A program made the position numbers. Positions 28,101-34,100 of a stretch of 64,000 nucleotides of DNA are shown one piece after another (positions within the stretch are counted from its first letter, which is position 1; each line of letters begins with the position of its first letter). The DNA is from Hydrolagus affinis (taxonomy: Eukaryota), in NCBI GenBank assembly GCA_012026655.1, contig JAAILG010001611.1:1-64000 (forward strand), written 5' to 3'.

Positions 28101-31100
28101 AGGGGTAATAAAGAAACCAAGGTTATTTTTCTTGATCACTGTCCATCAATGTTTACTTTAAAGTGTGCATGTATGGACATGAGCTGATAATAGGTCAAGA
28201 CTGCCAATTAATATACCAATCATATGCTCACAAATAACCTCTAAACCCTGTATTATTACCTCAGTGCAATGCTCTATGACCACAATGTGCTTCAGGCAAC
28301 TTGTATGGTGAAACAAAGAGTATCAAGTCATGCCGGTGATCTACCAGTGAAGGAGCTGTTTAGAATTATGGTGATTAAGAGAAGGAAGACCTGGCTGGCA
28401 ATCCTCCAGATAAAATTGGTCATCTCATCTCCTGGCTGTTAGTGGGTTTTGGGTGTGAGCAAATAGGCTGCCACGTTTCCTACAGATATACAATTATATA
28501 TTTACAATAAATGTTATAAAGTGCTTTGAGGCATCTCGACACATTAAGATACTATATCAAATGTTATTAATGTTATTATTATCATTAAGGCGTTACATAA
28601 TAATAATCCTTGCTTTTGATATTGTATCCTATCACATCATCAAGACATCTCAAAGCCCAGCACAGAATATACAGTAAAGTGTGGTGACTGTATACTTTTA
28701 AGGGCAGCCAACCACTCACAGCAGCGTCCCACAAAGTCGTTATTATTATAATAATCATTGCATTTGATGTAGCGCCTTATCAAGTTGGCTTCACAGAAGT
28801 GTTTCCAAAATGAGGGCGGTATTTTAGGAATTTGCAAACAAAAAGCAGGACTGAAATAGCGACTTTCCCAATTCTCTTACGACTGTTTGGAGAATGCTGC
28901 AATCCTGGGGGAGGGGGCAGGTTTAATCCTGAGGGAAGGGAGAAGGTGTAATTCCTGCGGGGGTGGGGGGAGTATAATCTTGAGGGCAGGGAGCAGGTAC
29001 AATCCCGAGGAGGTGGGGGTGGCAGGTGAAATGTGCCGGGCTGACACTGAACTTGCACTCTTGTGAGCAATCGATGCTGGATTGTTTGGGGCTGGCGGTG
29101 GGCTGCTGTGTTCATCGCTGCTCGGGAGTCTCGTTCAAAAGGCCTTCAGCTCTCCCGCGCCACCGCTCCCCCCCACTAATCGACCGGTTTCGCCATGTCC
29201 AGCTCCCTGTGCCGGTTGTTGGAGCCTCTGGTCGCCCGCGGTGGCCGGCCGCAGCCTGTGAGCTTGTCGCGGGAGTGGCGGAGTGTCGGCGGGGGCGGGA
29301 GGCCTCCATGGTGCAGCTCTCCGCTGTCTCCCACCGGAGGCCTCGGGGTGGGAAGCCGCCGCTGCTTCACCCTCCGGCGCCCGGGTGTGTATGGCCGGGA
29401 GCGGGCTGGGAGTTGGTGGCTGGGGGTTGGAGTTGGAATGGGTTTAGGTTTAACCCTCACCCTTCGCCAACATTTCCCGTGCCTGCGATCTGAATGTCAG
29501 GAGGAGATTCCGGGAGAGGAACAACAACAAATACAAGTTCATGTACCACAACCAGCAGCTGCCAAGTTTTCATCAGCCATTAAAAACAGTCGAGAATTGC
29601 TCCAGCGAATAAAGGTGAGCGGTAGCATCTCCTTACCTGCATTGAAGAGAAACTTTTGTCTTTGATTTCCCAAGGCTATGTTAAATCCCAAAAATCTGCT
29701 TTCCTTTAGCATAAAATACCGAGGTTTCCCCACCACCACCCCCACCCCGCACATCCTCACAATACTGTAATCATAATAAAAATTCCTGCATTTGATATAG
29801 CACCCGATCACCTTTGAGATGTCTCGAAAAGCGCTTCACGGAATCCCCACAAAATATTTTATTATTATTCAAATATACAGTCGATTCACTTTACAGAATA
29901 TTCTGTGAAGCGCCTTGAGACGTCTAGAAGGGAAAAGCACCTATATCAAATGCAAGGATTATTATTATTATATTGCAAAGTGAATTGGCTGTGTATTTGT
30001 GGGTGAACTGTGGCGGCCAGCTTATTGTACTGTATTACAGTATTGTACTGAAGCAGTTAATTTTCACCACTGTCTGACCTTCCATTGGTGAAATACCGTG
30101 CTTCACAGTTCAGTATATCATATGAAGTGCTTTGAGCCATCTCAGCGATGTGACATGAAGCAAATATCAAATGCAAGCAATATTATCATGTACAGAAATT
30201 TCCGTGTAATGTATCTGGTATGGAGTGTGCGCCATTTCTCTCTGGAGGGGTGCCAACTTTTCGCTTAAAGGAAGCGCTCTGGGACGCTACTCTGCGTGAA
30301 GGGCGCTACATCAATTGCAAGTGGTTGTCATTAATCCGAAGATTTGACAAGATTCTGTCCACAATCCCACATGCTGATGGATGGATGGTTCCACCAGTAG
30401 AAGGTCGGGTGGTTTCGACAAGAGTGACTTACCTAATGCAGCGACTCATCTGTGTTGTTGTTAGCACCCTGAATATCTCCCTTCCCCAACTCCCCCAACC
30501 CTTTTCCAATTGAAGCAAACTATTTAAGATGCACGGGGCAGTCGGCTGGGCAGATGGAGCCCAGCGGTGACAGAGGAGGCCGCGGTGTCTGTGACGTCAA
30601 GCGCCTGACTCCCACCTTGTTGACATTCAAACGTCGGTTTGAATCCGCCTCGCGACCGCGTTCCATTAACGGCTCCGGGACCAACGGCTGCATTTGGCTC
30701 CGAAACTCCGCTTGTCTTTAGCCCTCCCCTACACACACACATACACATTACTCCTCACATACACACACACACACCGCTGAAGAGGGAGAAAAGCTAACCA
30801 CCGGTGGACCTCTATGACCTAGGTACTCCTACCCCTCCAACCTCTCTACCTCCAGTAGCCGGTGTATCAGCAGCGATGTTTTCCAGGACCTCGTCGCCGG
30901 GGTCGGGACCCAGCTGCCAGGACCGAAACAGCGCCGACTTGACGGGAGAAAACGTCGAGCGCGACTTCCACGAGGGTATCCAGGAGGGTAAGGAGCAGAT
31001 CAAGGACCTGAACGACCGCTTCGCCAAATACATCAACAACACGGTGATGAACCTGCAGCGCAAAAACAAGGAGCTGCTGTCCGAGCTGAAGCGGGTGGAG

Positions 31101-34100
31101 CGAGAGGAGTTCGGCGCCGTGGAGAAGGTCTTCCAGAAAGACAACCAGGACTTCCAATGCAGGATGGACGAGCTCCAGAACGAACTGGTGCTGTTGAAGC
31201 TGGACACGGACAAGATCAAAGCCCGACTGGACAAAGAGATCCAGCAAAAGAGGGAATACGAGAAGGACTTCCAGGACCTGAAGAAGAAATATGACGATGC
31301 TCTGGTTCTCCTGGAGAGGCTCCAGTGCCAGTGCAAGCTCCTGGAGGCTCAATTGGCGCAGCTGAAGATAGTCCGGGATCAAGAGCGCATTTACTGGCAG
31401 CAGAAGATCGACAACCTGCAGAACCTGGATCAGGTGGATACCAACACCCTGGACCTGGAGCAGGCGCTGAGGAACATGCGCAGCGAATACGAGCAGTTGG
31501 CCAAGAGGAACAAGGAAGAACTGGAGAGGTACAAGCAGAAGTTTGAGGAGAGTAGCAATCCATTGCAAAGGATCAAGAAAGAGACCGAGGCGTACCGCAT
31601 TGCCCTGATCGATTTGAGAATCCGGGATGAATTGCACAAGAGCCAACTGCAGGAGAAGGAGCGAGAGATCAATCGGATCAAGGAATACAATAAAACACTG
31701 GAGAAGAATGTTGAGGTTCATGCCACCGAATATCAGACCCTGCTCAACGTTAAGAATGGGCTTGAGCACGAGCTCTGTGGTTACAAGAGTCTTTTGAATC
31801 AAGTGGAAAAGAAGTCAAGGGACTATTCCTCTCCACCTTGCATAACCGCGGCCCCCAAAGCTACAGAAGATATCAATAAGATGTGGGCTTAGTGCATTTA
31901 GCGTACCCATTGTTAGAACACTTGGAACTTGCTTTAACATATTTTCTGACCATTGTAAAGCGTAACAAACAAAACTTTGAATTTGATTAATATATTAATA
32001 ACTGCTGAATCTGTTATCAGCTACAGGAAATTGTTTTTAGTCTTCAATGTTTCTTTCAATTATTTTGCTCATTAGATATATATTCATACAGGTGTTTTCC
32101 TAATTTGTAAAATGGAACATAGGCTAAAATCCGTTTTATTCAAAACAGCTCAACTGTAGTCATACTACAGATGAATAGAATTAAACGTTTTGGGTATCCT
32201 AAGCCATATACAGTACTATATGCTTTGGTCACATATACTGTTGGTGCAGTATTGGTAGTACGTAATTAGATAAAAGTAGCTTTTGGGACTAACTACATCA
32301 AATTGGTTGGTGTCAGTGACTCTTTCATTTTCCTTGAATATTTAGCTTGATCACAATTTTTTTTGATAATCAGAGGTCCATGATGTGCTTTGCAGTTGCG
32401 ACAAATGAGTAATAATACTATTTTAGGTTTCCATGTATCCTTTTCATTCATATTAGTGTTAACTTTAATAACTTAACTCTTATTAAAAGTACGTAACAAA
32501 TATTAACTATGCTTTCTGTTTTTTCTGATAAAATAAATCTGAAAAAATTTTTTGGCTTGTATATCTTTTATTGAAAAAAATTGCGATGTTCAAGATCTGT
32601 TATCACCTGGAGTCATTTAAGAAAAAATCTGCTCACATTCCCTAAGCCCATGGGAGTTGATGCCCCATAGAAGTTAGTTTAGGAATTCTCTCCAACCTTG
32701 AGGAATGTTGACTACAAATATATAGTCACTCCATTTCACAGTAAATCTTTTAAAGTCCTTTGAGATATCTTCCTGACATGACAAGGCACTATATCAAATG
32801 CAAGAATTATTATAAATTGAATTTTGCATTGCTGTCACTTAAAATAAACTTTACAGTTGAATGCATTAGATTTTTTTCTCTGCCCTCGTTCTGTTTCTTT
32901 TTGGGTCCATGGTGAAACTGGTTTATTGTCTGGCCGCACCTAATTTCAGGAACAAATATATCAAATTGGGTGTTTTCTCCTTCCGTACTTGAGATTGACA
33001 GTACAGTAGTTGAATAACTTACACAAGTGTACACTCCTCCAATGGAGTTAGCAACTCTAACCTCAGTTGGTTGCTCCCTTCCCATACATCCCCTTTTGTA
33101 ATTCCTCATTGGTTATCCAGTTTCCTTTAAAATGTTATTTTGGTCCCGAGCCTCAACCAAAATGACTACATAAGAAAATCATTTGAAGAATAATAATAAT
33201 AATATGAATAATTTACATGTACTCAAATCTAAATGAAGCTATTTATAAATAAATAAAAATAAATATTTTATTTAAAAAATAAAAATAATAAATTGGTCAT
33301 TTCAATCCATGACTGTGGGACACTGCTGTGCGCAATTGGCTGCTGTATTTCGCCCACAAATATACAGTCAATTCACTTTACTGTACCAGTATATTCTGTG
33401 AGCGCTTTGAGATGTCTAGAAGACATGAAAAGCGCTATATTAAATGCAAGGATTATTATTATTATTATTATGAGTCAATTTGTTTGGCCCCTAGTGGAAC
33501 TGAGAACTGCTTTCCATTTATAAGCAAAAACGTATCTTTGATAAGCTGTCAACTGATTCAATTGATATCACTCTTGCCTCTGAAACAGATGGTTGTGGGT
33601 TCAAGCCCCACTCTGCTGCATTGTCCCTTGGATGAGACTTTGAACCGAAGTCTGGGTTTTATTCGCCCACAAAATATACAGTCAATTCACTTTATGGTAT
33701 ATTTTGTGAAGCACTTTGATACGTCTAGAAAACATGAAAAGCACCAAATCAAATGCAAGGATTGCTATTATTGTTATTATCTACCTGTTCACATGGCTGT
33801 TAAAGATCCCAAGACCCTATTTGGAAAGAGAATTTACTCCTGGTGACCTGCCTCAAAGATCTTCCAGAGAAAAGTAACTCGCAGATGAATATAAATGATA
33901 TCGAAATGAAAAAAGGTAGTATGCCAAACTACTTTTCGTGAAATGGCTGTTTGTGAGACATTGTTATGTCCAAGCTGCCTGCCACACTTGCCTGCAACTA
34001 CATAACCACAGTGAATCCTGCAAATGGCTTTGAGAAATTCCGTCATGTATTTTGACAATTAAAGTAAAGGACTTAATTATTAAACTGCAGTATTAAACTG

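Follow-up and report, generated by a model that had tools for sequence, protein, structure and literature searches.

The locus analysed here raises the question of how an uninterrupted reading frame for an intermediate filament (IF) protein came to lie upstream of LACTB exon 2 in a chimaera, and whether it represents a functional gene. The frame spans positions 30876..31892 of a 64,000-nucleotide (nt) stretch of the Hydrolagus affinis genome (assembly GCA_012026655.1, contig JAAILG010001611.1, positions 1 to 64,000), hereafter the window. An earlier note, made from the sequence alone, had pointed to this frame as an unrecognised intronless IF gene nested in the first intron of LACTB, and had proposed for it an origin as an old, domesticated retrogene. 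The results reported below identify the open reading frame (ORF) as a real, conserved, single-exon gene of the IF superfamily, and it is most probably a functional processed retrogene encoding a divergent cytoplasmic IF protein.

The frame runs on the forward strand, which is also that of LACTB, from an ATG to a TAG codon (338 codons plus stop, 1017 nt). The stop-free frame around it opens at 30798 and extends over 364 codons, which makes it the longest stop-to-stop frame that the window contains, and none of 2000 mononucleotide shuffles of 30798..31892 yielded a frame as long, the longest reaching 284. The predicted protein matched the Pfam Filament family (PF00038; E 4.6e-27, 95.9 bits against a cut-off of 40), no other Pfam family scored above threshold, and both rod-end motifs described in the earlier note were located, with LNDRFAKYI at residues 45-53 and EYQTLLNVK..LEHELCGYKSLL at residues 285-307. 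Vimentin was the top match in the PDB (E 6.4e-16, covering residues 25-312), and the atlas neighbours of the protein belong to mixed IF classes, every one of them carrying PF00038. The interval 30876..31892 (+) can hence be described as the complete single-exon coding sequence (CDS) of an IF-family gene, presenting 95% identity over its full length to a 340-residue RefSeq model of Callorhinchus milii (C. milii; P0002). As also observed in the earlier note, the ORF is rich in GC and CpG (GC 0.52, CpG observed/expected 0.73) in AT-rich surroundings, the remaining interval to LACTB exon 2 showing values of 0.34 and 0.34. Copies resembling short interspersed nuclear elements (SINEs) lie around the gene at 29770..30020, 32716..32834, 33337..33480 and 33672..33790, sharing cores of 46-71 nt in both orientations. 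The opposite strand contains a stop-free frame of 315 codons (30870..31814, -) that matches no Pfam family; this frame most likely owes its existence to the skewed codon usage of a coiled-coil gene, rather than being a gene itself.

Searches for related proteins outlined a family with a narrow taxonomic range. All 20 matches returned by a word-indexed protein search, and all 32 family matches of a profile search, carry chondrichthyan names, and neither the family searches nor a HMMER search of 1.84 billion representatives turned up a member from bony vertebrates or jawless fishes. The family may thus have arisen on the chondrichthyan stem or have been lost elsewhere. Three sets of sequences were distinguished within it. 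Branch A, to which the window gene belongs, comprises models from 10 named chondrichthyan species of both subclasses, with lengths of 340-351 residues (417 in Narcine), identities of 52-95%, and C-termini reading KMWC or KMWA. Branch B contains proteins of C. milii and of sharks and rays, and A' is a single C. milii protein (P0011, 342 residues) seen only in that species, where it is encoded on a different contig. The Narcine bancroftii member of branch A (P0012, 417 residues) presents an N-terminal extension of 70 residues, rich in Pro and Arg, which none of the other members has and which is probably due to a mis-called start site.

The existence of these models means that the gene was not, as first supposed, unrecognised. 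RefSeq holds family members under names derived from automatic best hits (vimentin-like, desmin-like, GFAP-like, peripherin-like and low molecular weight neuronal IF-like), and an old C. milii LACTB model contains part of the gene. A full-text literature search, covering the main texts in one library, found no description of it. Term searches returned no molecular identities from a paper on stingray IFs (PMC11266302), and nothing on the gene from a keratin update in which cartilaginous fish were mentioned once (PMC8733776). The gene is therefore already present in databases under misleading names, and the clade was not found described in print.

To place the family among IF proteins, a maximum-likelihood (ML) tree was computed from 64 rows and 405 columns, encompassing 14 family proteins spanning the species and 50 non-family representatives with full-length rods; P0005, P0008, P0012, several branch B rows and all isoforms were set aside. 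Branch A is represented in this tree by the window, C. milii and six shark or ray species, the three further species being assigned to it by head and tail motifs only. Support was high for the family (100/100), for A plus A' (100/99), for branch B (96/85), for the pairing of the window with C. milii (100/100) and for the elasmobranch members of branch A (99/99), whereas the position of A' relative to A is weak (66/38). Within A and within B alike, the chimaera sequence is sister to the elasmobranch sequences, which indicates that the split between the two branches is older than that between Holocephali and Elasmobranchii. The latter took place more than 400 million years ago.

Several proxies support the view that the gene is old and under constraint. 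Frames are intact in the 10 species, and the window protein is 95% identical to that of C. milii over 240 residues, against 89.0% over 463 residues for exons 2-6 of the host LACTB in the same pair of species. GC content at the first, second and third codon positions is 0.55, 0.26 and 0.76, respectively, in an interval with a GC of 0.34. Root-to-tip path lengths in the ML tree are similar in A and B.

The distance between this family and other IF proteins is substantial. The exhaustive HMMER search returned 213 proteins at E <= 1e-3 and 13 at E <= 1e-10. Seven of the latter are family members or fragments thereof (52-58% identity to the window protein), all of them 73-97% identical to elasmobranch branch B, and the other six are ordinary IFs with identities of 28-32%. 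The next-best proteins from outside the family are type III-like IFs (28-29% identity) that carry the Filament_head domain and have vimentin as their own top PDB match. Of the 150 non-family representatives listed, 83 were scanned with Pfam, and classes were assigned from the head domains so recognised and from two PDB searches. The 83 canonical proteins each matched PF00038 with at least 164 bits, and 15 of them presented Filament_head and 13 Keratin_2_head. In the family alignment of 21 members, PF00038 is recognised in every sequence, with a best E-value of 1.9e-31, and Pfam head or tail domains, including Filament_head (PF04732, E <= 0.01) and Keratin_2_head, are recognised in none.

In the ML tree a stem of 1.79 changes per site attaches the family to the three-way node that separates an assemblage bearing Filament_head (77/73) from one that is keratin-like (97/92). 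The 97/92 branch sets the family apart from the keratin-like sequences, and the family does not appear to nest in any type III clade. The suggestion that the gene is lineage-specific and fits no class cleanly is borne out, with matches that are exclusively chondrichthyan; the type II keratin-like flavour that had been read into some of its motifs finds no counterpart in the tree, nor in a keratin head, which none of the 21 members carries. Lamin features are likewise absent, in agreement with the earlier reading: coil 1B is 7 residues under the canonical cytoplasmic length rather than extended by the 42 residues typical of lamins, there is no lamin tail domain, and the protein ends in KMWA with no CaaX box. 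The closest resemblance is to type III IFs (vimentin, desmin, GFAP and peripherin), with which the protein shares both end motifs and, in vimentin, its best PDB match. It differs from them in its low identity (28-29%) and Filament score (95.9 bits), in having no Filament_head, a rod shorter by ~31-35 residues and an extra residue in coil 1A, and in the absence of introns from its CDS.

The relationship between branches A and B bears directly on the origin of the window gene. Branch B paralogues (~353 residues, represented in RefSeq by vimentin-, desmin-, GFAP- and peripherin-like isoform sets) are sister to branch A and share with the window gene 52-56% identity, the shortened rod, the family-specific residue T56 and the end motifs. 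They differ in a head beginning MHSSC, in a longer acidic tail ending ...SSSDEDKESEENEDLCALDQD, in their location on other contigs and, as far as can be deduced from their models, in being encoded by multiple exons. Among 16 branch B rows, two lack exactly 32 residues (window residues 138-169) and seven lack exactly 53 (170-222), and such adjacent missing cassettes are what would be expected of skipped exons. Read-through mis-models of branch B begin or end, passing into sequence without homology to the family, at window-equivalent residues 117/118, 169/170, 222/223, ~250/251 and 315/316. The window CDS is uninterrupted at all of the approximately six borders deduced in this manner, whose equivalents fall at 31226/7, 31286/7, 31382/3, 31541/2, ~31625/6 and 31820/1.

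When partial models of ordinary IFs were aligned to a profile built from 26 canonical rods, they proved to break at five of the six branch B borders (all except 315/316), four of them cleanly and 137/138 (P0041) within a residue. P0078 begins at the start of branch B exon 2; the site following WYKSK marks the end of P0041, P0068 and P0097 and the beginning of P0096; P0072, P0079 and P0055 stop at the site following ..ALKG, and P0073 resumes near the RDQ/ER site. The run of 20, 32 and 53 residues deduced for branch B exons fits the type III exon series (61, 96 and 162 nt), sizes for which a literature search gave no confirming paper. Since the borders are shared with canonical breakpoints, the introns of branch B would be ancestral and not gained, and branch A would have been left without all of them at once. 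Models of the two branches map to different contigs in C. milii, Heptranchias, Hemitrygon, Narcine and Cetorhinus. A paralogue with deduced introns, an unbroken copy and separate contigs together constitute the signature of a processed retrocopy, and branch A is very probably such a copy, its parent having already diverged and the event predating the separation of chimaeras from sharks. The retrogene proposed in the earlier note thereby gains direct support from a putative multi-exon paralogue with borders where canonical IF models break.

The anatomy of the predicted protein is that of an IF with an unusually short rod. The head (residues 1-37, 30876..30986) is short, rich in Ser, Pro and Gly and devoid of Filament_head; M1, C14 and R17 are conserved in it, and its residues 1-22 present values below 50 in the predicted local distance difference test (pLDDT). 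Coil 1 (residues 38-185, 30987..31430), defined by the alignment and by a model helix at 24-185, includes the helix initiation motif LNDRFAKYI (31008..31034) and T56, an additional residue specific to the family. Linker L12 (residues 186-191, 31431..31448), the sole interruption of the predicted helix, aligns with that of vimentin and has pLDDT below 50 at 187-191. Coil 2 (residues 192-311, 31449..31808) is ~23-26 residues under canonical length and ends in the helix termination motif (31728..31796). The tail (residues 312-338, 31809..31892 with the stop codon), in which Y317, K328 and E331 are conserved, ends in EDINKMWA and has pLDDT below 50 from residue 319. All these elements lie on the forward strand. 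The AlphaFold2 monomer model (mean pLDDT 82.6) presents helices at 24-185 and 192-318 flanked by a disordered head and tail. A fold search of this model against the PDB gave weak matches to vimentin filaments (best E 0.027, template modelling score 0.23) and is uninformative for a two-helix rod with arbitrarily placed arms. Across the 21 family sequences, conserved hydrophobic positions keep the 3-4 spacing of heptads, and L45, N46, R48, F49, K51, Y52, I53, Y303, K304, L306 and L307 are invariant.

Measured against the 26 canonical rods, which span 306-314 residues, the rod of the window protein is ~31-35 residues shorter, at ~277, and so departs from the fixed length (~310) of vertebrate cytoplasmic types I-IV. 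The change is distributed as one residue gained in coil 1A, two lost in L1, seven in coil 1B, one at the WYK site and ~22 in coil 2B, and it is common to branches A and B. This bears on the proposal of an old, domesticated retrogene, which had been argued from the heavy divergence of the sequence. The age and the constraint are upheld, but the divergence and the short rod also characterise the presumably intron-bearing branch B, and both features hence predate retroposition and are not its result. From sequence and model, the window protein would be expected to form parallel coiled-coil dimers and to polymerise in the manner of IFs via its conserved end motifs. With a rod ~31-35 residues too short, register with type I-IV partners seems unlikely, and its likeliest partners would be itself or the equally short paralogues of branch B and A'.

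The events that best account for these observations can be outlined as follows. In the lineage leading to cartilaginous fishes, a type III-like IF gene would have evolved fast and lost ~31-35 residues of its rod. The spliced mRNA of this short-rod parent would then have been reverse-transcribed and inserted in sense orientation close to the promoter region of LACTB, whose first intron is the most likely site, before chimaeras diverged from sharks and rays, and the branch A copy would have kept its frame open. The retrocopy would probably be driven by its own promoter, within the CpG-rich sequence at its 5' end, and the transcript may include a short non-coding first exon. Its product, which has a short head, long heptad helices at 38-185 and 192-311 with the 6-residue L12 between them, the two end motifs and a short tail, would dimerise and polymerise as other IFs do.

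A number of points weigh against this account. The introns of branch B are deduced from isoforms and mis-models. A repeat search with a 30-nt minimum gave SINE-like repeats only, with neither a poly(A) remnant nor a target-site duplication in evidence; such marks are not expected at this age, yet the consequence is that there is no direct mark of retroposition. Among the orthologues, only that of C. milii is tied to LACTB, through the old fused model. The promoter, the splicing and the tissue of expression are all putative. The type III/IV-like assemblage in the tree is held by only 77/73, and a stem of 1.79 invites long-branch artefacts. Finally, the head gives no match to Filament_head in the window protein or in any of the 21 members, which leaves self-assembly uncertain.

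The part of the account most open to revision concerns the exact position of the gene. It sits upstream of LACTB exon 2 and, as the earlier note had stated, on the same strand; its nesting in intron 1 is likely but unproven, because the first exon of LACTB could not be verified. Exon 2 was located at 34625..34691 (+), with a phase 0 acceptor (tgtag/GATGAA) and a tblastn extent of 34625-34711, and it matches residues 60-81 of human LACTB chain 7v21_A (E 1.7e-5). With the C. milii model as query, tblastn placed exons 3-6 at 35908-36102, 36687-37046, 37406-37603 and 44311-44859 (+), in agreement with the Beta-lactamase exons that a Pfam scan detected at 35.9-44.9 kilobases (kb). Searches with the LACTB exons of the window covered each exon singly. 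The only candidate for exon 1, which is unverified, lies at 29195..29614 (+): 140 codons within a CpG island, running from an ATG to a donor (AAG/gtgagc) in phase 0, which fits the acceptor of exon 2.

If this candidate were not exon 1, the IF gene could stand between TPM1 and LACTB instead of inside the latter. Consistent with such an arrangement, no homologue of the candidate was found in the atlas (best score 0.82, no family), in the protein collection (none of 1314 candidates passed) or in the PDB, searched with the whole exon and with its last 40 residues, even though the LACTB chains of the PDB have 23-59 residues upstream of the exon 2 match; furthermore, its GC content is flat across codon positions (0.65/0.58/0.61). 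Against it, the candidate is the sole ATG-started frame in the sole other CpG island upstream of exon 2, and its terminal consensus donor has the phase that exon 2 requires. Exons 2-6 begin at residue 60 of chain 7v21_A, which is impossible as an N-terminus. The only long frame between the IF stop codon and exon 2 (33313..33843, 177 codons), which was rejected as a candidate gene, has no ATG, derives from one SINE-like pair of repeats whose copies it overlaps, and matches no Pfam family. We therefore regard an intergenic position as unlikely, and retain the location within intron 1 as the probable one.

A second alternative accepts the gene as real and denies that it is a retrocopy: branch A could be a DNA-level duplicate that lost its introns stepwise, or it could be ancestral, with branch B having gained introns. 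Either scenario would accord with the lack of a surviving poly(A) tract or target-site duplication and with a branch B gene structure that is deduced from protein models. Both are made improbable by the simultaneous absence of some six deduced borders from the window CDS, by the coincidence of five of these with canonical breakpoints, and by the separate contigs of A and B in five species.

The old C. milii LACTB model mentioned above (P0179, XP_007905816.1, 680 residues, PF00038 and PF00144) suggests yet another possibility, namely that LACTB uses the ORF as an alternative first coding exon, with a fusion protein as the result. This model joins residues 1-240 of the IF protein to LACTB from exon 2 onward, which shows the IF frame to precede exon 2 in C. 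milii as well; the shared strand and the unverified first exon are compatible with a fusion. In the window, however, the bases that follow 31589, the equivalent of the junction, are GC and not GT, and the join cuts coil 2, eliminating the termination motif and tail that are kept in all 21 aligned members. On account of this GC donor and of the deletion of the conserved rod end, we read the fused model as an artefact, and with complete free-standing models (~340 residues) available in C. milii and nine other named species, a fusion product is a highly improbable explanation of the ORF.

That the frame is a processed pseudogene, or an open frame arisen by chance and devoid of function, is an explanation close to refuted, for although it is intronless, set in repeat-rich intronic sequence, of no known expression and low in PF00038 score compared with the 83 canonical representatives (95.9 against at least 164 bits), its orthologues are intact in 10 species of both chondrichthyan subclasses, it is better conserved than the host LACTB in the same two species, it combines strong codon-position structure with a CpG-rich 5' end of its own, its length was reached in none of the 2000 shuffles, and its low score is common to the multi-exon paralogue, the best of the 21 members attaining only 1.9e-31.

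For the probable processed retrogene, the flanking sequence offers several candidate control elements. A CpG-island-like stretch at 30601..31200 (GC 0.54-0.60, CpG observed/expected 0.85-1.08) covers the 5' flank and the 5' third of the CDS, and is set off from the island at 29001..29400 by ~1.2 kb of repeat-bearing, CpG-poorer DNA; it may constitute the gene's own promoter region. The CpG-rich 5' flank also contains the palindrome TGACGTCA (30592..30599), which resembles a cAMP response element. A tract rich in pyrimidines (30827..30855, +), whose terminal AG lies 20 nt upstream of the ATG, might act as the splice acceptor of a non-coding 5' exon, and the first AATAAA past the stop codon (32532..32537, +), 640 nt downstream, is a possible polyadenylation signal. 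A two-codon upstream ORF (ATG ACC TAG) is present at 30814..30822, 54-62 nt ahead of the start codon.

Six classes of IF proteins are distinguished on the basis of their sequences, the structure of their genes and the partners with which they assemble, and the length of the rod is among their most fixed features. The clade described here breaks this rule, is confined to one vertebrate class and retains one member as what appears to be an intronless retrocopy dating from before the chimaera-shark split, thus providing a natural test of how far rod geometry decides polymerisation partners. That an IF with a short rod can have a private partner is exemplified by filensin (BFSP1) of the lens beaded filament, in which coil 2 is ~29 residues shorter than in other cytoplasmic IFs and which assembles with a dedicated partner. 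No specific relationship to filensin was found, and filensin was not identified among the matches, though a "phakinin" cluster appears among the atlas neighbours. A more ambitious interpretation, which we put forward as tentative and rather doubtful, is that A and B, together with A', form a separate cytoplasmic IF sequence class private to cartilaginous fishes, in which a ~277-residue rod bars co-assembly with types I-IV and one partner stems from a retrogene more than 400 million years old that borrowed the LACTB promoter neighbourhood.

The window gene also relates to an older debate. Type IV genes were proposed to have arisen via a retroposed intron-less intermediate, an idea that has since been challenged, and the present locus offers a concrete case for the notion of IF gene renewal through retroposition (PMC2075511). 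The window gene would be a living example of an intronless IF copy, and, were the private class to be confirmed, the first extant representative of the intronless intermediate from which neurofilament genes were once proposed to have arisen; unlike the products of that proposed origin, it has no new coding introns and was not close to type IV by any test run. On a practical level, the automatic names under which family members are filed (vimentin-, desmin-, GFAP-, peripherin- and neuronal IF-like) could corrupt the reading of marker genes in shark and ray transcriptomics.

The remainder of the window presents a conserved gene neighbourhood. Pfam scans were performed on stop-to-stop frames of 14225..64000 (at least 45 residues) and of 1..14224 (58 frames, at least ~70 residues). 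In addition to the Beta-lactamase exons, they detected Tropomyosin exons at 13.1-18.5 kb (+), a ribosomal protein S27 exon resembling RPS27L at 48520..48729 (-) and, in a CpG-rich stretch, a Ras-family first exon resembling RAB8B at 53911..54153 (+). The last two complete the conserved order TPM1-LACTB-RPS27L-RAB8B, which corresponds to the block named in the earlier note. Long frames at 9182..10164 were discarded as derived from a minisatellite and lacking any Pfam match. A CA-rich minisatellite (period ~31-33, ~11.5 copies) and a G-rich tract occupy 9493..9901 and 10170..10273, and two runs of 100 N interrupt the window at 23063..23162 and 51797..51896.

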